DNA from: Escherichia phage bob
DNA: 45,256 bases
Direction: 5' to 3' (one strand)
Sequence record: NC_073072.1
The translations under genes were made by a program, and so were the position numbers. The notes under the pieces are model-generated. The model made no database searches. It was not told the DNA's origin and saw only the letters and a program-made list of their open reading frames with translations. Positions 9,333 to 38,634 of the stretch are shown here, one piece after another (the first letter of the stretch is position 1; each line of letters starts with the position of its first letter).

Positions 9333-9411
9333 AGCTAAATCCTCGTAATTGGTTGCAATCCTGGCTGAGCGGTGTAATACTAAAACTCAACCAAATATAG
9401 GGGATGATACC

Positions 9412-9630
9412 ATGAAAACTTTAATTATGATTTGTGCGGTTCTTTTGTCCGGTTGTGCCGACATGCCGTCTAAAATCTGCGACGCAACATACATGAATAG
9501 TGGTATGGAGTATTCCGTCCAGGTGTTTGGGGTCGCCGACTTTAGCGGGCATAAAATGCTAAGGGCGGGTTATCCGTTCAACTTCCAGTATGTGTCGGTC
9601 GACCACTTCAAAAGCACCACCTGCGAATAA
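9412..9630 (+). CDS. small outer-membrane-type lipoprotein, candidate receptor-blocking superinfection-exclusion protein (Cor/Llp-like by context)
   Basis: MKTLIMICAVLLSGC: signal peptide with lipobox LSG|C; 72 aa; divergent from tail fibre gene; GGGGA RBS. Confidence 0.65.
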   Translation: MKTLIMICAVLLSGCADMPSKICDATYMNSGMEYSVQVFGVADFSGHKMLRAGYPFNFQYVSVDHFKSTTCE

Positions 9631-19492: not shown

Positions 19493-19555
19493 TATGCAGT
19501 CCCCTTTTTTATGCAGTTGCCGATTGATATTGTATCAGCGATTTCAAAACAAACC

Positions 19556-19764: not shown

Positions 19765-19874
19765 GACAAAACGGGACGTCCCGCCTGTCCCGCTTTGAGT
19801 TTATGCAATGAAAGTGATTAGATATGCGGTTTTACAGAGGCGGGACAAAACGGGACGTCCCGCCTGTCCCGCTT
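19765..19874. repeat. two perfect 31 bp direct repeats each containing the 12 bp palindrome CGGGACGTCCCG
   Basis: GACAAAACGGGACGTCCCGCCTGTCCCGCTT at 19765-19795 and 19844-19874, inside a ~79 bp imperfect tandem unit. Confidence 0.8.
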
Positions 19875-30729: not shown

Positions 30730-31280
30730 TATTCACCCTGGCCTTTGCCGGAAGGTTCGACAACTACGTCGCCGTTATCATCTTCGTCGTCATCCAGCGG
30801 TACATCGTCGCGGACGCCGTGGTTTGCTTTAAGCAGGAATGTAGCGAAGCCTGCCGCGATGGTCACACCACCGGCTTCCATCAGGAAAGTTTTCTGCAGT
30901 TCCATTGCGTCCGCCATCGCTTCGGCAAACTCCTCATGTGCTCGCGCCCAGCGGTACAGGCAAGCTACGCCTACGCCGATTTCAGCGGCAAATCGACCGA
31001 AGGTTGGCATTTTGTTGCGGGGGATTACTTGCGCAGCGCCTTTATCGGAGTAGTTTACCTGCCAGGCGTCGGCGTCGGCAAAATAGCGGCGAAGCTGGTC
31101 GCAGTAAACGGATCGGTAGTCAGTAGGGCGTCCACATTTTCCGCCTTTACGGCGCTTGCCGTACTCGATTTCAGGTCCGAGATTGGTGTGCTCGGTTTGC
31201 TCGCCTGGTTTACGGCGCGGGGTTACTGCTACTCGTCCGTCCAGTTTGGCGCGTCGGCCCTTAACTTTGATTTCTGCCAT
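30729..31280 (-). CDS. putative terminase small subunit
   Basis: ATG 31280 with AAAGGG RBS; basic N-terminus; directly upstream of and overlapping terminase large subunit. Confidence 0.5.
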   Translation of the reverse strand: MAEIKVKGRRAKLDGRVAVTPRRKPGEQTEHTNLGPEIEYGKRRKGGKCGRPTDYRSVYCDQLRRYFADADAWQVNYSDKGAAQVIPRNKMPTFGRFAAEIGVGVACLYRWARAHEEFAEAMADAMELQKTFLMEAGGVTIAAGFATFLLKANHGVRDDVPLDDDEDDNGDVVVEPSGKGQGE

Positions 31281-31410
31281 GATATAAGCCCTTTTGTTCA
31301 TATGCGCCGACCATCGGCAACATAGGAGACGGCCCTGCCATCTAAGTGGGATTATAACAGGCACAAAAAAGCCCACCAAATCGGCAGGCTGGGAGGATTA
31401 CTGGCTGCCG

Positions 31411-32553
31411 TTACTTCAACATTTCCGGGCTAATGGTTAAGCGCGCTACTTCGCCGTAGTTGGCGCTGTAGGTAATGACGTTTGCGCTGCGACCGGACAT
31501 CCAACCGCCACGACTGGCGTAGGCGTCTTTCGCTGCGAGCGTCCGGTGCTGTTCAACAATCATGTTGCGGGATTCTACAATCTTCTGGTGGTGCAAGTGG
31601 CCTATGTGCGCGTAGCTGTACTCACTGGATCCGAAAGCCTGTCTGAATTTAGAAATCATGACGGTTTCGATAGCGTCAAAGCGCGCTTTGTGCCCGTGGT
31701 GGAAGAATAGCGTGGTCTTGCCGTGCTGCACCATTTTGTAGACGTCCGGGGACGTATCCACATCGACGCGCGGCTCGTTCTCGTACAGAGTATTGAACAT
31801 CTCAGCCAGCCAAATCATACCCGACTCGTCATGATTTCCCTGGACGATTAGCAGTTTGACTTTGTGGTGTTTTTGCAGCGCCAGTTCGACGACGTTGCGC
31901 ACCATGCGAATCATGTAGCGGACCAACTTCTGGTATCGGGTATCTGCGTCCAGGATATGACCACTGGCTGGGGTGACGGCATCGAGGCTATCAAAATGCG
32001 CCATATCACCGAGGATATTGATTACGGCAGTTCCTGCGTCTGGTGCGCGGGCGAAGGCTTCGACAAACCAGCGGTAAAACAGGTCTTCGGCAATCGCCAT
32101 ATCCCAGTCTTCGCCAGTCTCCTCGCCCCAGGCCAACATGCCCAGGTGGAAGTCGGACACGGTATACAGGTTGAGCAAGTCGAGCGCCTTGATCGGTACT
32201 GGCGGGGCGTTTACTGGCGCTGCCGGTGTGATTTCGCTGTTCATACCCTCGACAACAGCGCGCATGGCTTCGAGTTGGCGCTCTTTGTCCTGCTCAGTGA
32301 TGACCCACGACATGACCTCTTCGCCATTGCCGCGCACCAGGGCCGATACGCGCTTAACCCCAAAGCCATCTGCAACTCGCTTACGGATCACGGCATCATT
32401 ACCGTGACCAATTCCCTTTTTCGATAGGCGGGCTTTGCGCATATAGACATTTCGAAGTGCAATGCCGTATTTCTTTGCAATCTCTTTAACCGTAGTCCCT
32501 GCCTGAATTTCTGCGATCAATTGCTCATCGGTAATTTTAGTTTGCGGGTGCAT
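31411..32553 (-). CDS. calcineurin-like metallophosphoesterase with N-terminal HTH domain
   Basis: Motifs ILGDMAHFD, VQGNHDE, HHGH, GHLHH; N-terminal TVKEIAKKYGIALRNVY helix-turn-helix. Confidence 0.75.
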   Translation of the reverse strand: MHPQTKITDEQLIAEIQAGTTVKEIAKKYGIALRNVYMRKARLSKKGIGHGNDAVIRKRVADGFGVKRVSALVRGNGEEVMSWVITEQDKERQLEAMRAVVEGMNSEITPAAPVNAPPVPIKALDLLNLYTVSDFHLGMLAWGEETGEDWDMAIAEDLFYRWFVEAFARAPDAGTAVINILGDMAHFDSLDAVTPASGHILDADTRYQKLVRYMIRMVRNVVELALQKHHKVKLLIVQGNHDESGMIWLAEMFNTLYENEPRVDVDTSPDVYKMVQHGKTTLFFHHGHKARFDAIETVMISKFRQAFGSSEYSYAHIGHLHHQKIVESRNMIVEQHRTLAAKDAYASRGGWMSGRSANVITYSANYGEVARLTISPEMLK

Positions 32554-32614
32554 ATTTAATTAATTCCTGATTAGTGGACCGTGGACAATATACCACGGTC
32601 CGTATGGCGGCGGG

Positions 32615-32695
32615 CTATATCAATTCGCAAATAACCATGCCGATAAAAGCCGCGGTGGTCCAGATCGCTAATACCCAAATATCTTTACGTGCCAT
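32615..32695 (-). CDS. tiny hydrophobic peptide (26 aa), speculative
   Basis: MARKDIWVLAIWTTAAFIGMVICELI with strong GAGAGGAG RBS; below the track size cutoff. Confidence 0.25.
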   Translation of the reverse strand: MARKDIWVLAIWTTAAFIGMVICELI

Positions 32696-32714
32696 CTTAA
32701 TTACTCCTCTCGTT

Positions 32715-32750
32715 GATTGGTTGCAGTATGGCGTCTATGTTGGTTGCAAG
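32715..32750. promoter_or_regulatory. pair of TTGGTTGCA motifs
   Basis: GATTGGTTGCAG 32715-32726 and TGTTGGTTGCAAG 32738-32750, between lysis-cassette terminator and the tiny ORF/phosphatase gene. Confidence 0.5.
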
Positions 32751-32759
32751 TCAAGCAAT

Positions 32760-32790
32760 AAAAAGCCCGGTATTATCCGGGCTTGATTGT
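32760..32790 (-). terminator. rho-independent terminator ending the lysis cassette
   Basis: On minus strand AGCCCGG-ataata-CCGGGCT followed by TTTTATT. Confidence 0.55.
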
Positions 32791-32958
32791 TTACGCTGCG
32801 GGGCCGGGTTCTTCCGGCGGTGGCGGGCTTGGCAGCTTCGCGTCAAAGACGCCTGCATGGCTGATAGTGTCCGCGATGATAGCGCGTGCGCCAGGGTCTT
32901 CGGTTTTAGCCAGCGCGGCGAGCGCGTCAGCGTTATGATCAAGAATACTTTTTAACAT
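32791..32958 (-). CDS. small hydrophilic protein (55 aa), Pro-rich C-terminus
   Basis: ATG 32958 with GAGGTGA RBS; ends PSPPPPEEPGPAA; below track cutoff. Confidence 0.35.
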   Translation of the reverse strand: MLKSILDHNADALAALAKTEDPGARAIIADTISHAGVFDAKLPSPPPPEEPGPAA

Positions 32959-32974
32959 ATTGTGTCACCTCGTA

Positions 32975-33466
32975 TTATGCAGCGTTACGTCCGATTCGCT
33001 CGGCAACGTCCCACTGCTTGCCATCAAACAACGCCTGTCTGCCGATTGCACGGCGTACCAGACCCTTCAGCACTTCCCCGCCTTGCTTGCGGAACTGCGG
33101 CAGAGTAGCACGGACCTTCGCCCAGTCCCCCAGTCGCACCGCATCGTCGAAATCATTCGCGACGTCATCCGGTACGATCGGACCAGGACCGGCGTTGATT
33201 ACCAGGTCCACCAGCGCGTCGAATTGCGCCTGGTTAATACTCTTATGCGCGTATTTGTTCACCCAGTCCTCGGCATACGCCACATCGCGCTTGAGTAGCT
33301 CCAGCGCTTCCGCGCGGGTAATGCTTCGAGGCGGGTTAGTGCCGGTGTGCCCATAACCCCAGGTGTACAGGCCGCGGGCCTGCTCTTTCTTAGTCGCGAA
33401 ATACGGCACCGGGCTGAAAGCCTCCCATGCTGCCGTAAATCTTAGACCGTTGTCACTGAATCGCAT
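32975..33466 (-). CDS. endolysin (phage lysozyme, GH24-like)
   Basis: 163 aa; ...WEAFSPVPYF...GLYTWGYGHTG... resembles lysozyme catalytic region; follows two membrane proteins. Confidence 0.75.
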   Translation of the reverse strand: MRFSDNGLRFTAAWEAFSPVPYFATKKEQARGLYTWGYGHTGTNPPRSITRAEALELLKRDVAYAEDWVNKYAHKSINQAQFDALVDLVINAGPGPIVPDDVANDFDDAVRLGDWAKVRATLPQFRKQGGEVLKGLVRRAIGRQALFDGKQWDVAERIGRNAA

Positions 33467-33698
33467 GTTTTACCCCATTCAAAACAGCATTACGCAGTGT
33501 GCGCAATGCAAACAGCCAGATTAACGCGGTCCAGGTGGTATCTGATACGTCTCCTGTTTGCAACAATCCGATAACGCAGACCATCGCCGTTAGCAGATAT
33601 AACACCCGGCCTAAAATGCCATCCTGGACGGACGGCGCATACACGTTAAACAGGGACGAAGCCCCTATGATAACAAACAACAGGACGGAGATAATCAT
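33453..33698 (-). CDS. holin/antiholin-like membrane protein
   Basis: 81 aa with 2-3 hydrophobic helices; overlaps endolysin start. Confidence 0.5.
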   Translation of the reverse strand: MIISVLLFVIIGASSLFNVYAPSVQDGILGRVLYLLTAMVCVIGLLQTGDVSDTTWTALIWLFALRTLRNAVLNGVKHAIQ

Positions 33699-33985
33699 TT
33701 TGCGCCCCCCGGAAGTCGGAACGACTCAATAGTCTCCCTGATCCGGGCGGCTATTGGCATCCAGAAGATGGCAGTTACGAAGCCCAACCCGGCAACAGTG
33801 CGCTCGCCAGATAAGCCAGCCCACTCGGCAATAGCTGGCGCACCAAATATGGCACACAAGAAGCCGACCACGATATATAAAACGAAGTTTAGCGGCCCTT
33901 TCGTAGCCTCGCCATGAATGCGAGCGCCAACGAAGCCCCCCGCGAGACACGCGAGGGCGAATAGCCACTCGTTTAGCTTATCCAT
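33695..33985 (-). CDS. holin-like membrane protein
   Basis: 96 aa, multiple TMDs (LFALACLAGGFVGA; FVLYIVVGFLCAIFGAPAI). Confidence 0.55.
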   Translation of the reverse strand: MDKLNEWLFALACLAGGFVGARIHGEATKGPLNFVLYIVVGFLCAIFGAPAIAEWAGLSGERTVAGLGFVTAIFWMPIAARIRETIESFRLPGGAK

Positions 33986-34037
33986 AAAAAAGTCCCAGTA
34001 AGTTTTATCTCACTGGGACTATATCACGCTTGCATAA

Positions 34038-35779: not shown

Positions 35780-35821
35780 TGCAACCAATATAGCAAGGTG
35801 CCAGGGCGAATGCAACCAATA
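35780..35821. promoter_or_regulatory. pair of TGCAACCAAT motifs upstream of minus-strand gene 35758
   Basis: Copies at 35780-35790 and 35811-35821; a further TATTGGTTGCC at 35901-35911. Confidence 0.5.
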
Positions 35822-36345: not shown

Positions 36346-38634
36346 TTATGACAATATTCGACGACCCATAGATGGCTCCGGTGTGTGGGTCTGTATAAAA
36401 ACCGAGTACGCCGCGCTCGACCATATCGTCGATTGCCTTCGTCGATGTGCCACCTTTCGCAAGCCCAGCCTGGCGGACAATTGCCGATTTACTGAATCCG
36501 GTATGGTCCGGGTTATCTTCGATGTGCCACCTTTCGCAAGCCCAGCCTGGCGGACAATTGCCGATTTACTGAATCCGGTATGGTCCGGGTTATCTTCCAT
36601 CAGTTTTTCCAGCGCTGCATAAAGCACTTTCTCTTTTTCGTTGCGCGGTCCTGCTGCGTTCTCTTCCTTAACTGCTGCCTTGCCAGCGGCCTTCGCCTGT
36701 TCGATGGCGAACGGTGCCAGGGCGACCGGTACGAGGTAAAGAGTCTCGTCGCGTGGCGTGGAGGCAATTGGCTTGACGTCCCAACCGGCAACTACATCGC
36801 CGAAGTCCGGCCCGGTGCTGGTGGACTGGTGTGCCTCGAACGCCTCGGACTTGCGGAGATCCACCTTAACTTTGCACTTGAGCAGGACGAAGCCACGCGG
36901 CGCTTGCTTGATGCCGTTACGTGACTTCTCATGATACAGGTTCAATTGTCCGGGCTGGTTGTCGTCCGGCTGTTCCAGGAAGAACGCAGAATCGACAGCA
37001 CCATGCAGCGCGCCGGACCCGCGGGGAGATCTGCTGCCGTTTGAACCTTTCGCCGGGTGGTGGATGACGCCCGCACTGCCGCCTGTATTTTCCGCAATGG
37101 CCTTCAGCGCTTTGACCACTTCGCCCATATCGCTGGCGTTGTTCTCGTCGAACGGTTTTGCATCGGCGGACCGCAGCGCAACAGTCTGGTTGAGTGAGTC
37201 GAACGCCACCAGGCCAACCGGCTCGCCGTTAGCGGTGCGGTTGATGAAGCTGATAACTTCACGCAAGCCAGATTTGCTGGTGATATCCCATCCGCGTGAT
37301 TGCAGATCGATAATGTGCAGCTTGTCCAGGTCGTGCTCATATTTGATCTGCAGTGCTTCTTTACGCTGGTTGGAGGCCTCACCACCTTCCGCATCGAAAT
37401 AGAAGCAATGAGACTGGACGACCTTCGCACCGCCGAACGGAATACCGGCAGATACTGACGCCATCTGGCCCAGCACGTAGAACGACTTGCCAATGTTCGA
37501 TTCGCCAGCCATATACCAGGTCGATTTGAAGTTGACCAGGCCTTCGATGATCGGGTCGTGCTTACTGAACAGTGCGACCGGCTCGTTGTCCAGGTCTGCA
37601 TCAGTACACACGCCGTACTCGTCGCCGTCTCCGACCGCATCAACGATATGTTCATAGCACGATTCCACTTCCTCATCGTCCAGTCCCGGAAGGATGGCGG
37701 CGATTTGCTTACGTGACATGTTGTGCGGCTCGACGTTCAGGTGGTCCGGGATCCCGATAAGACGTAGCGCCAGGTGCTGGTGTCTGTTCAGTTCCGAGCA
37801 ACACTCGTTGCCGGTGTGCATACACTTGAAACGGATCTCGCCATCCTTAACCATGATAGCGGTGGACCCTTCGCCGCTGTGCAGGTGTTCGTTCGGGCAT
37901 GGCACTTCATAACCACGACCAGACGACAGCGGTTCGAATCCCGCCTGGAAGCACCAATCCAGAATACCGTCCGCCACACCATCATCGCCCTGGGTCAGTT
38001 CGCGGCGTACTTCCTCTTTCTCGACTCCCAGCTTGTCCGCCAGGCGGAGAAGACGACGGACGCGGGCGCGCTTGCCGTAGTGGCACTTAACGACAGACTG
38101 CTGATGTGGCAGGTACATAAGGCGGTTTGTGTCTTTTGTACAGTCGTCGAAGTCCACATCTGACAGACCAAGTTGGTGTAATAGCGCATACTGGACACGG
38201 CCCAGGTCTTCAGCCGGTACAGGCTTGTCCGTGAGTACCAGGAATCGAGCGCAACGCGTGCCGCCTTTCAGCGGGTGGCGGTCGCCGGTTGTGGTGTGAA
38301 ATACGTGCTCCAGCCCCGCGTCGATGAAAGCCTTACGGCAGCGGCGTAGGGTGCGGGTGTCGGTACGGTCAATATCGAAGAACAGGATCGAGCGGTCCAC
38401 CGCACTGGTCTTGCGGCGTAAGCCGTCACTGGTATACGCTACGATGCCATCGGCCTTACGCTTGCGGCGCGCATACTCGGCTTTATCTTCCGTCTTGTTG
38501 ATATGCACCGACGATATCTCTTTCGCATCTTTGATAAATTCGAAAAATTCATCGGTCGTCATCCGGAAGTTTTCCGCCCTGGCTTTTTCGCCTTTTTTAG
38601 CGGGTCGTGTTACAGCGAATTTAATTAAGCTCAT
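36346..38634 (-). CDS. primase-helicase (AEP-type primase N-terminus, Zn-binding middle, P-loop helicase C-terminus), with an altered C-terminal tail
   Basis: 762 aa; FFDIDRTD primase-like, CPNEHLHSGE...CMHTGNEC, Walker A GESNIGKS, Walker B LVAFDSL; 3' end carries a 77 bp tandem duplication. Confidence 0.8.
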   Translation of the reverse strand: MSLIKFAVTRPAKKGEKARAENFRMTTDEFFEFIKDAKEISSVHINKTEDKAEYARRKRKADGIVAYTSDGLRRKTSAVDRSILFFDIDRTDTRTLRRCRKAFIDAGLEHVFHTTTGDRHPLKGGTRCARFLVLTDKPVPAEDLGRVQYALLHQLGLSDVDFDDCTKDTNRLMYLPHQQSVVKCHYGKRARVRRLLRLADKLGVEKEEVRRELTQGDDGVADGILDWCFQAGFEPLSSGRGYEVPCPNEHLHSGEGSTAIMVKDGEIRFKCMHTGNECCSELNRHQHLALRLIGIPDHLNVEPHNMSRKQIAAILPGLDDEEVESCYEHIVDAVGDGDEYGVCTDADLDNEPVALFSKHDPIIEGLVNFKSTWYMAGESNIGKSFYVLGQMASVSAGIPFGGAKVVQSHCFYFDAEGGEASNQRKEALQIKYEHDLDKLHIIDLQSRGWDITSKSGLREVISFINRTANGEPVGLVAFDSLNQTVALRSADAKPFDENNASDMGEVVKALKAIAENTGGSAGVIHHPAKGSNGSRSPRGSGALHGAVDSAFFLEQPDDNQPGQLNLYHEKSRNGIKQAPRGFVLLKCKVKVDLRKSEAFEAHQSTSTGPDFGDVVAGWDVKPIASTPRDETLYLVPVALAPFAIEQAKAAGKAAVKEENAAGPRNEKEKVLYAALEKLMEDNPDHTGFSKSAIVRQAGLAKGGTSKITRTIPDSVNRQLSARLGLRKVAHRRRQSTIWSSAAYSVFIQTHTPEPSMGRRILS
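36443..36596. repeat. perfect 77 bp tandem duplication inside the primase-helicase coding region
   Basis: 36443-36519 and 36520-36596 are identical; 77 is not a multiple of 3, so the second-read copy is translated in a shifted frame. Confidence 0.85.

Follow-up and report, generated by a model that had tools for sequence, protein, structure and literature searches.

The helix-turn-helix metallophosphoesterase gene of Escherichia phage bob and its upstream region: a predicted DNA-directed nuclease, a probable membrane micropeptide gene, and an inverted repeat centred on a candidate promoter

Directly upstream of a gene for a metallophosphoesterase with an N-terminal helix-turn-helix (HTH), the genome of Escherichia phage bob carries a perfect inverted repeat and a 26-codon open reading frame (ORF). 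Does the repeat act as RNA or as DNA, is the small ORF a leader of the larger gene or a gene of its own, and what might the enzyme do? We addressed these questions in the 45,256-nucleotide sequence NC_073072.1 (hereafter, the window). The region belongs to a Dhillonvirus (HK578-like coliphage) genome, with 94-96% nucleotide identity to Dhillonvirus genomes by megablast, and is absent from the E. coli chromosomes and prophages searched. The best explanation of the whole, in which we place moderate confidence, is a small transcription unit that would encode a DNA-directed nuclease and, separately, a micropeptide, with a second promoter (P2) at the centre of the repeat. The unit comprises the following features.

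32763..32784, minus strand: intrinsic-terminator-like hairpin and T-run, end of the lysis-cassette transcript (scan; terminator annotation in CS16, PTXU06, and WFI)
32725..32754, minus strand: predicted sigma-70-like promoter P1, TTGACT-18 nt-CATACT, 5' of the small ORF (consensus scan)
32704..32711, minus strand: Shine-Dalgarno sequence GAGAGGAG of the small ORF, last base 8 nt 5' of the ATG
32615..32695, minus strand: 26-codon ORF for a hydrophobic single-span peptide, MARKDIWVLAIWTTAAFIGMVICELI (ORF list; nearly always unannotated)
31411..32553, minus strand: coding sequence of the 380-aa HTH-metallophosphoesterase, PHROG 704 family (ORF list; phrog_704 match)
31370..31390, minus strand: intrinsic-terminator-like hairpin and T-run directly 3' of the phosphoesterase stop codon (scan; terminator annotation in CS16)

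Bounded by the lysis-cassette terminator on one side and by the terminator preceding the terminase genes on the other, the unit would be self-contained. P1 is kept in most Dhillonvirus relatives and is a candidate promoter; no Dhillonvirus transcript map was found in the literature searched.

A preliminary description of this locus had reported a perfect 9-bp inverted repeat at 32580-32605. The repeat is indeed perfect, but it lies 4 nt away from that position, as follows.

32576..32601, no strand assigned: perfect 9-bp inverted repeat GGACCGTGG-N8-CCACGGTCC with an 8-nt spacer (sequence; RNA hairpin of about -17.3 kcal/mol)
32587..32595, minus strand: TGGTATATT, extended -10-like element forming the 'loop' of the repeat, proposed P2, ending 33 nt before the ATG
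32565..32568, minus strand: AGGA ribosome-binding site of the phosphoesterase gene, last base 11 nt 5' of the ATG

The bare repeat is no more than expected by chance: the window holds four perfect inverted repeats of at least 9 bp with loops of 3-10 nt, compared with 2.0 +/- 1.8 in dinucleotide shuffles, and no further copy of the palindrome or of its half-site was found in the window. The hairpin is 13 nt from the stop codon of the small ORF, and the phosphoesterase gene begins 22 nt beyond it. The AGGA site follows the stem by 7 nt and stays unpaired in the predicted structure; its G54, A55, and A56 are invariant in an 18-sequence alignment, with TGGA or TGAA in two sequences.

The centre of the repeat, TG[G/A]TATATTG, is found without exception in the 29 distinct Dhillonvirus upstream regions compared, 29-35 nt away from the ATG. 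It is kept in genomes that have neither P1 nor the small ORF, and at least four ORF-less architectures retain it with a terminator immediately upstream. The G-to-A change at the 'n' of the TGn breaks a stem pair and keeps the promoter motif. Jersey-like relatives have the -10-like strings TGGTTAAAT or TAGTAT in the equivalent position, and a perfect TGTTATAAT comes after the next terminator. TGGTATATT has the sequence expected of an extended -10 sigma-70 promoter (TGnTATAAT-like, at a suitable distance), and from this pattern we infer that the element is a promoter. Read as DNA, the invariant centre TGnTATATT would be the extended -10 of P2 and drive the phosphoesterase gene directly; the flanking stem would be dispensable for that gene and serve, at most, the transcript of the upstream cistron. 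P2 has no recognisable -35 and was not called in a consensus promoter scan, and TGnTATAAT-like strings showed no genome-wide enrichment in the window; the argument for P2 is therefore purely a comparative one.

The stem is considerably more variable than the loop. In the stem alignment, 82% of cells are paired, three cells are compensated, and five of ten pairs depart by unpaired cells only, while genomes with phosphoesterases that are 97-99% identical have hairpin energies anywhere between -19.5 and -1.8 kcal/mol. Stable hairpins are found where a cistron lies upstream (-19.5 to -7.2 kcal/mol, n=20) and weak ones where none does (-12.5 to -1.8 kcal/mol, n=9), with medians of about -17 and -4.9 kcal/mol (Mann-Whitney p 8e-5), in a comparison of phylogenetically non-independent genomes in which some deletions merely removed part of the left arm. 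This association hints at some RNA-level role of the stem, and a possible, if rather unlikely, alternative is that the repeat acts as RNA for the upstream cistron without regulating the phosphoesterase gene, either as a 3' stem-loop that would protect or define the end of the P1/micropeptide transcript, or as a 5'-terminal stabiliser where P1 abuts it. Consistent with this, the hairpin still follows the last upstream cistron in those genomes that carry an additional 57-aa ORF between the small ORF and the repeat, and one clade has gained an outer G-C pair. Furthermore, the predicted 8-pair stem of two genomes (L015 and L090) includes three G-U pairs, such that it pairs as RNA yet is a poor DNA palindrome (5/8), and P1 would start transcription at the foot of the stem in these genomes. 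However, there is little compensatory change, and the invariance of the loop even where the stem is lost is unexplained by a model based only on RNA. With P2 preferred, the locus is a caution that, where the loop of a perfect hairpin is its conserved part, a promoter may be a better interpretation than an RNA switch.

The 380-aa ORF, with its metallophosphoesterase motifs and N-terminal HTH, is present as first described, according to the ORF list, the motifs, and an AlphaFold model. Residues 5-380 match the phrog_704 profile over positions 2-390 of 390 (E 5.1e-161). The joining of HTH and phosphoesterase had been considered an unusual fusion; instead, it is the standard PHROG 704 architecture, found in approximately 2,000 phages and 4,700 clusters. 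Relatives occur in 2,005 of 50,697 phage records, 1,680 of which cover at least 80% of the query, and form 4,670 clusters at 50% identity, mostly of 370-400 aa. Cluster representatives are matched from about residue 5-20 through to the end, and relatives uniformly combine HTH and phosphoesterase in one polypeptide of that size. These include phages of Dhillonvirus, Guernseyvirinae, and Drexlerviridae, as well as Vibrio, Campylobacter, and Rhodobacter phages. The gene already carries the annotation phosphoesterase or DNA repair exonuclease in well over a hundred near-identical Dhillonvirus genomes. The bob protein is a typical member of PHROG 704 ('DNA repair exonuclease' / 'putative phosphoesterase'; ex. 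SO-1 gp58, B2 ORF44, AAS23 gp38, and the KP1801 phosphoesterase), sharing its length, its layout of HTH, linker, and metallophosphoesterase, and its invariant ligands, with no difference seen. The gene is an ordinary one, widely conserved in Dhillonvirus phages of E. coli, and its function is a predicted one. Given the size of the family, and since no biochemical or genetic study of any member was found in the literature searched, a single study combining both approaches would annotate thousands of genes.

Three parts of the protein were delineated.

32419..32529, minus strand: three-helix HTH resembling LuxR and sigma-70 region 4, codons 9-45 (AF2 helices 9-17, 22-29, and 33-45)
32236..32364, minus strand: beta-hairpin and helix linker, codons 64-106 (AF2 secondary structure; conservation)
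31414..32193, minus strand: metallophosphoesterase catalytic domain with all five motifs, codons 121-380

The AlphaFold model (pLDDT 91.9) places three helices within residues 9-45. While the protein itself gives weak Pfam HTH matches that do not reach the cut-off (GerE E 0.017, HTH_28 E 0.029), family members match Sigma70_r4_2 (best 1.5e-9), GerE (2.4e-8), and HTH_1, and the family profile gives weak matches to GerE, RhlR, DesR, and SigH in the PDB. Linker residues G77 and W83 are nearly invariant. The catalytic domain has the four-layer beta-sandwich phosphoesterase fold and the complete motif set of the calcineurin-like metallophosphoesterase superfamily (DxH, GDxx(D/H), GNH(D/E), H, GHxH), namely D134-F-H136, G182-D-M-A-H186, G239-N-H-D-E243, H285-H-G-H288, and G318-H-L-H321. 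Nine of these residues (D134, H136, G182, D183, N240, H241, H286, G318, and H321) do not vary among 62 diverse homologues (32-80% identity). Scores for Metallophos (20.2 vs 21.5 bits) and Metallophos_2 (22.2 vs 27 bits) fall just under the Pfam gathering thresholds, which are a detection limit and not a defining property, and 17 of the 62 relatives match Metallophos at E <= 0.01. PADLOC and NCBIfam searches gave nothing useful, and a single-protein sequence search of the PDB returned repeat-protein artefacts only.

The nearest folds are the nucleases PolD-DP1, SbcD, and Mre11, and this branch comes first in both structure searches. The protein is most likely a stand-alone DNA-directed phosphodiesterase (nuclease): a flexibly tethered HTH would be followed by the beta-hairpin/helix linker and an intact Mre11/SbcD/DP1-like binuclear metallophosphoesterase, and the HTH would bring the enzyme to DNA with no Rad50-type partner. 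Metallophosphoesterase folds, however, span several activities, and the enzyme could instead be a protein phosphatase (lambda phosphatase-like), a cyclic or oligonucleotide phosphodiesterase directed against immune messengers, or mainly a transcription factor. The phosphodiesterases Rv0805 and GpdQ are among the structural matches, some records label homologues as Ser/Thr phosphatase or transcriptional regulator, and the HTH is akin to those of LuxR and sigma region 4. We nevertheless consider this group of alternatives unlikely. PPP phosphatases rank far below the nuclease branch in both structure searches, motif II of the bob protein is GDxxH and not GDxVDRG, and a phosphatase acting on small molecules or proteins would not be expected to carry a DNA-binding domain, while the full conservation of catalytic ligands disfavours a purely regulatory role. 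Motif II of Mre11 is likewise GDxxH.

Mre11 and SbcD share the nuclease-domain fold and Mre11-type motif set with the bob protein, but sequence identity is 13-17%, the profile link is barely there (E 0.7), and 186-193 of their 319-362 residues align. Their capping domain and Rad50-binding helices are absent from the bob protein because its chain stops with the core fold at residue 380, and the N-terminal HTH has no equivalent in them. Their cognate Rad50/SbcC ABC-ATPase has no counterpart gene in phage bob: none was found among the large ORFs of the window (helicase, tail fibre, J, tape measure, portal, primase-helicase, exonuclease, and methyltransferase). DP1, the small subunit of PolD and a 3'-5' proofreading exonuclease, is 13% identical; unlike DP1, the bob protein has no OB domain, and the phage has no PolD large subunit or family-D polymerase.

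The 26-codon ORF and its near-consensus ribosome-binding site, both noted in the preliminary description, exist as described, with an AGGAG site in GAGAGGAG. The ORF is found in about 109 Dhillonvirus records by tblastn and looks like a real gene, judging from its coding pattern. Of the six frames, it alone is open in every one of the 13 distinct 26-codon versions, and its pN/pS of 0.27 is the lowest (0.49-3.6 in the others), as estimated from about 20 variable sites. The peptide has one predicted span and a conserved hydrophobic core, residues 6-26 have a GRAVY of 2.1, and the AGGAG core is kept in relatives, with a GAGAT(T/G)GAG context instead where another gene sits upstream. The suggestion of a small membrane peptide is plausible. 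The ORF would be a separate, dispensable accessory gene, the first cistron of P1, encoding a single-span inner-membrane peptide.

It is doubtful that the ORF is instead no gene and merely forms a conserved leader at the 5' end of the P1 transcript. Such a reading would account for its absence from about 30% of Dhillonvirus genomes with no effect on its neighbours (at least four independent genome architectures without it still keep the phosphoesterase gene), and for the lack of any Pfam or PHROG similarity in profile searches and of any homologue outside Dhillonvirus by tblastn; it is also below the length limits of gene callers and unannotated in almost all records. A mere leader, however, would not be expected to be the sole always-open frame with the lowest pN/pS, to conserve a hydrophobic core and an AGGAG at optimal spacing, or to have an ATG overlapping the stop of an extra upstream gene, as in EK99P-1-type genomes. 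The opposite-strand ORF at 32574..32786 (plus strand), annotated in JL1, CS16, and B2, was rejected as a candidate gene: it runs through the terminator and P1, records annotate it with differing lengths, and within the overlap 3 of 13 versions are interrupted by stops. Gene callers appear to have overlooked a conserved micropeptide gene in about 109 genomes, several records of which carry the probably spurious opposite-strand ORF instead.

Based on its sequence features, the peptide resembles bacterial type I toxin peptides and Imm proteins in being a short, N-terminally charged hydrophobic helix, a likeness of character without sequence similarity. Jersey-like relatives carry a gene for an Imm_superinfect membrane protein (PF14373, E 3e-13) in the same slot, immediately upstream of the homologous phosphoesterase gene, with two predicted spans compared to one in the 26-aa peptide.

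Two published virion proteomes bear on whether the enzyme is carried in the particle. The homologue in phage B2, ORF44, was found in purified virions with 13 unique peptides and 36.6% coverage (PMC5945888), and AAS23 gp38, a full-length homologue (42% identity, E 1e-99), was detected in virions by LC-MS/MS (PMC8004638). By analogy with these two phages, the protein may therefore ride in the particle of phage bob, although a contaminant bound to DNA could give such a signal; 'DNA polymerase I' was likewise found in particles in the B2 study (PMC5945888). Together with a very large family and intact catalytic residues, these proteomes make the protein worth studying. A far-reaching and only tentative reading, unlikely when taken as a whole, is that the HTH-fused enzyme is a nuclease carried in the virion and acts before phage gene expression as a siphovirus counterpart of T5 A1, and that the 26-aa peptide is, separately, a new membrane micropeptide. 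If so, the nuclease would be packaged on phage DNA via its HTH and delivered with the genome before phage gene expression, with the host chromosome, defence elements, or the ends of the phage genome as its targets. A counterpart of the T5 A1-type host-takeover nuclease would then exist in about 4% of sequenced phages, and the peptide could have, for example, a superinfection-exclusion role like that of the Imm protein in the same Jersey-like slot.

T5 A1 has an N-terminal DNA-binding domain and a predicted C-terminal endonuclease domain and is implicated in host genome degradation (PMC12916289). Its layout is similar on paper, and its SNHD aligns to GNHD of the bob protein. Unlike the latter, A1 (pre-early host-DNA degradation / second-step transfer) has 556 aa, belongs to PHROG 1745, and is expressed from first-step-transfer DNA; as a homologue, it was rejected (BLASTP E 0.16, hhalign probability 18%, different PHROG). 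A metallophosphoesterase with measured phosphodiesterase activity, Gp48 of mycobacteriophage A10ZJ24, damages host DNA and counters a host defence (PMC12287305). Gp48 has the same five motifs but belongs to a different family; its motif I begins at residue 10, leaving no N-terminal HTH or linker, and it is expressed early with no virion report, whereas homologues of the bob protein were seen in virions.

Two further roles have been considered for the repeat. The palindrome, perfect and centred exactly on the -10-like hexamer 5' of a gene for an HTH protein, could be an operator at which P2 is repressed by an HTH dimer, perhaps of the N-terminal domain of the phosphoesterase itself, bound across the -10 element. 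This is improbable: among relatives the right arm is free to vary, and several genomes have lost the palindrome although their proteins are nearly identical. The window contains no further copy of the half-site, distant family members have no equivalent palindrome, and operators of dimeric HTH proteins do not typically have a centre-to-centre spacing of 17 bp.

The leader-peptide attenuator raised in the preliminary description, in which translation of the small ORF would control the hairpin and the hairpin, in turn, transcription or translation of the phosphoesterase gene, finds some appeal in the close spacing of stop codon, hairpin, and gene and in the tendency of ORF and stable hairpin to co-occur, but is highly improbable, given that the stem is followed by ACUAAUCAGG with no U-tract, that sequence, fold, and terminator scan gave neither a terminator nor an RBS-sequestering hairpin 3' of the small ORF, that MFE and centroid folds predict an isolated hairpin (z-score -1.06) with no anti-terminator pairing overlapping the leader ORF, that no run of regulatory codons occurs in the small ORF, that stem changes mostly break pairs, and that the 57-aa ORF separates the small ORF from the repeat in some genomes. 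Neither covariation support nor co-inheritance of leader, hairpin, and gene was found across relatives; the gene remains intact at 97-99% identity in ORF-less genomes whose hairpins reach just -2 to -6 kcal/mol.

A functional tie between the phosphoesterase gene and terminase was also considered and dropped, as TerS adjoins the gene in Dhillonvirus only. The homologous gene faces tail genes in Jersey-like phages and lies between DNA-metabolism and lysis genes in T1-like relatives.

The sequence features named in the preliminary description are real, bar one coordinate error: the inverted repeat is perfect and present, four bases away from where it had been placed. The locus combines a typical phosphoesterase gene, an unannotated micropeptide gene and, probably, an extended -10 promoter within a palindrome, arranged as follows.

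32784..32763, minus strand: intrinsic-terminator-like hairpin (pattern scan)
32754..32725, minus strand: P1, a predicted TTGACT-18-CATACT promoter (pattern scan)
32711..32704, minus strand: ribosome-binding site GAGAGGAG of the small ORF, last base 8 nt before the ATG
32615..32695, minus strand: 26-codon ORF (sequence)
32576..32601: perfect inverted repeat GGACCGTGG-N8-CCACGGTCC (sequence)
31411..32553, minus strand: 380-aa phosphoesterase ORF (ORF list)
31390..31370, minus strand: intrinsic-terminator-like hairpin (pattern scan)

Because terminator-like hairpins flank both sides, the small ORF and the phosphoesterase gene appear to form one unit, located on the minus strand in the order two holins, endolysin, 55-aa ORF, region of interest, TerS, TerL and portal. 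Megablast of 31200-33000 matched 155 phage records (138 with at least 80% query coverage), with 94-96% identity to Escherichia phages UDS3lw, SECphi4, JL1, B2 and others in Dhillonvirus; the region was absent from the complete E. coli genomes searched.

The 380-aa protein carries the motifs D134-F-H136, G182-D-M-A-H186, G239-N-H-D-E243, H285-H-G-H288 and G318-H-L-H321. Pfam Metallophos scores fall just under cut-offs and HTH matches are weak, yet the protein matches PHROG 704 ('DNA repair exonuclease') over its full length (E 5e-161). Exhaustive HMMER searching found 4,670 cluster representatives at 50% identity (1,128 with E <= 1e-30), most of them 370-400 aa and aligned from near the N-terminus through to the end, and a tblastn search of 50,697 phage records detected the gene in 2,005 (1,680 of them with 80% or more of the query covered), spanning Dhillonvirus, Jersey-/Kaguna-like, T1-like Drexlerviridae, Vibrio, Campylobacter and Rhodobacter phages. 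Many members match HTH families (Sigma70_r4_2, 1.5e-9; GerE, 2.4e-8; HTH_1; HTH_8), and the family profile weakly matches PDB entries for GerE, RhlR, DesR, FixJ and sigma-H/RpoH region 4. Given these full-length and HTH matches across members, the fusion, previously thought unusual, is what defines a phage family that is very common, and this protein is a typical member of it. Across 62 homologues (32-80% identity), D134, H136, G182, D183, N240, H241, H286, G318 and H321 are invariant and H186 nearly so; selection therefore maintains the enzyme as a catalyst. The suggestion of a DNA-binding phosphoesterase would be right, with nuclease the more likely activity.

No functional study of PHROG 704 was found in the literature searched. 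The protein was rejected as an Mre11 orthologue: it has neither a capping nor a Rad50-binding region, and a Rad50/SbcC-like gene was not found among the window's large ORFs. For T5 A1, PMC12916289 describes a DNA-binding domain at the N-terminus and an endonuclease domain at the C-terminus; by this layout it is a functional analogue, and as a homologue it was rejected, with no detectable homology. A further functional analogue is Gp48 of mycobacteriophage A10ZJ24, a metallophosphoesterase lacking an HTH; it has phosphodiesterase activity and damages host DNA (PMC12287305). The virion proteome of Dhillonvirus B2, a phage with 93.9% megablast identity to the window over this region, included the 380-aa ORF44, with 13 unique peptides and 36.6% coverage (PMC5945888). 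AAS23 gp38, found by LC-MS/MS in the virion proteome of that Drexlerviridae phage (PMC8004638), is homologous over its full length (42% identity, E 1e-99). Delivery of this widespread enzyme by the virion, as a nuclease, is the most interesting possibility. The gene adjoins TerS in Dhillonvirus only; in Jersey-like phages it faces the tail genes, and T1-like phages place it between their DNA-metabolism and lysis genes. Because context varies in this way, a packaging-specific role is unlikely.

The small ORF occurs in 17 of the first 20 distinct upstream sequences and, by tblastn, in ~109 Dhillonvirus records and none outside the genus, compared with ~151-155 carrying the phosphoesterase gene. 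Across the 13 distinct 26-codon versions no frame but its own stays open throughout, and its pN/pS of 0.27 is below that of the remaining five (0.49-3.6); the AGGAG core of its ribosome-binding site is kept in relatives. EK99P-1-type genomes carry an extra 76-aa gene whose stop overlaps the small-ORF ATG (ATGGCACGTAA), a typical coupling arrangement; in others, a 57-aa ORF is inserted just before the small ORF's end. In the peptide, a short basic N-terminus leads into a hydrophobic segment of 21 residues (GRAVY 2.1); the peptide matches no Pfam or PHROG family. We read the small ORF as a real, dispensable accessory gene that would be expressed from P1. In this slot Jersey-like relatives have a gene for an Imm_superinfect membrane protein (PF14373, E 3e-13), as in the Jersey/Kagunavirus-like IMG/VR contig L016 (2126-2455, directly upstream of the phosphoesterase homologue); a role in superinfection exclusion or another membrane function is a guess. 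Between P1 and the phosphoesterase gene lies a small hotspot: some Dhillonviruses have the 76-aa ORF before or the 57-aa ORF after the micro-ORF (relatives' loci L004 2139-2369, L006 2263-2436 and L082 480-653), neither having a Pfam match. An opposite-strand ORF at 32574-32786(+), a 44-66-aa 'hypothetical protein' in several GenBank/RefSeq records, spans the terminator, P1 and micro-ORF; it was rejected as a gene and is probably a gene-caller artefact.

As a bare repeat, the palindrome is unremarkable: perfect inverted repeats with arms of 9 bp or more and loops of 3-10 nt number 4 in the window and 2.0 +/- 1.8 in shuffled sequence, and the half-site does not recur elsewhere in the window. 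Among 29 distinct upstream sequences from 33 Dhillonvirus loci, the sole never-varying stretch is TG[G/A]TATATTG, comprising the repeat's 'loop' and the last bases of its left arm and ending 29-35 nt (mostly 33) before the ATG. It has the sequence of an extended -10 motif, differing from TGnTATAAT at one position. Where G is replaced by A, the change sits on the free 'n', so that a stem pair is broken and the promoter motif left intact. At least four architectures have independently lost the small ORF, and all keep the motif; in three of these (the L003/L014/L086/L089, L007/L088 and L087 types) a terminator directly precedes it, so that the phosphoesterase gene would need a promoter exactly there, and in the fourth (L015/L090) P1 is retained, abutting the repeat. 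The corresponding position in Jersey-like relatives reads TGGTTAAAT or TAGTAT.

The main rival gives the stem a role in the upstream transcript, as its 3' stem-loop: median stability is about -17 kcal/mol with an upstream cistron (n=20) and -4.9 without (n=9), a difference (p 8e-5) between genomes that are not phylogenetically independent. The stem itself is variable, with 82% of cells paired, 5 of 10 pairs departing solely through unpaired cells, 3 compensated cells, and predicted stabilities of -19.5 to -1.8 kcal/mol among genomes with 97-99% identical phosphoesterase. The repeat as an operator is possible but poorly supported. The leader-peptide attenuator suggested earlier is rejected on every test that defines it: no U-tract follows the stem, the AGGA site lies outside it and is unpaired in the predicted fold, and the stem is poorly kept, with little compensation and variable stability. 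An extended -10 that happens to lie within a palindrome is the probable reading.

Immediately past the phosphoesterase terminator and before TerS, a perfect extended -10 TGTTATAAT at 31351-31359(-) probably serves the packaging/head operon as its promoter; similar TGnTAxxxT strings occur in other minus-strand gaps (9404-9412, 19529-19537, 34018-34026, 35787-35795). In many Dhillonviruses an extra 70-85-aa gene (SO-1 gp59-like) overlaps the phosphoesterase stop (relatives' loci L072 163-375, L076 118-375, L077 163-375); the window has only the terminator there. The 55-aa ORF (32791-32958(-), phrog_11068), just 3' of the endolysin, is acidic and proline-rich and is labelled 'major tail protein' in some records; its product was detected in purified B2 virions with 94.5% coverage (PMC5945888). 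Beside the lysis cassette of two holin-like genes and endolysin (32975-33985(-)) no obvious spanin was seen, neither lipobox nor Rz/Rz1 pair, and the outer-membrane disruption function of Dhillonviruses may be elsewhere or unconventional. The 762-aa protein at 36346-38634(-), called 'DNA polymerase I' by B2's authors, matches the replicative helicase-primase family phrog_3228, and no canonical DNA polymerase was found among the window's large ORFs. Finally, a long palindrome AAACGTCAGGCAATATTGTCTGGCGTTT followed by a T-rich run, and a palindrome CGGGACGTCC present twice ~80 bp apart, were noted for 167-194 and 19772-19865; the second CGGGACGTCC copy lies within a 28-nt inverted repeat (9-bp arms, 10-nt spacer).
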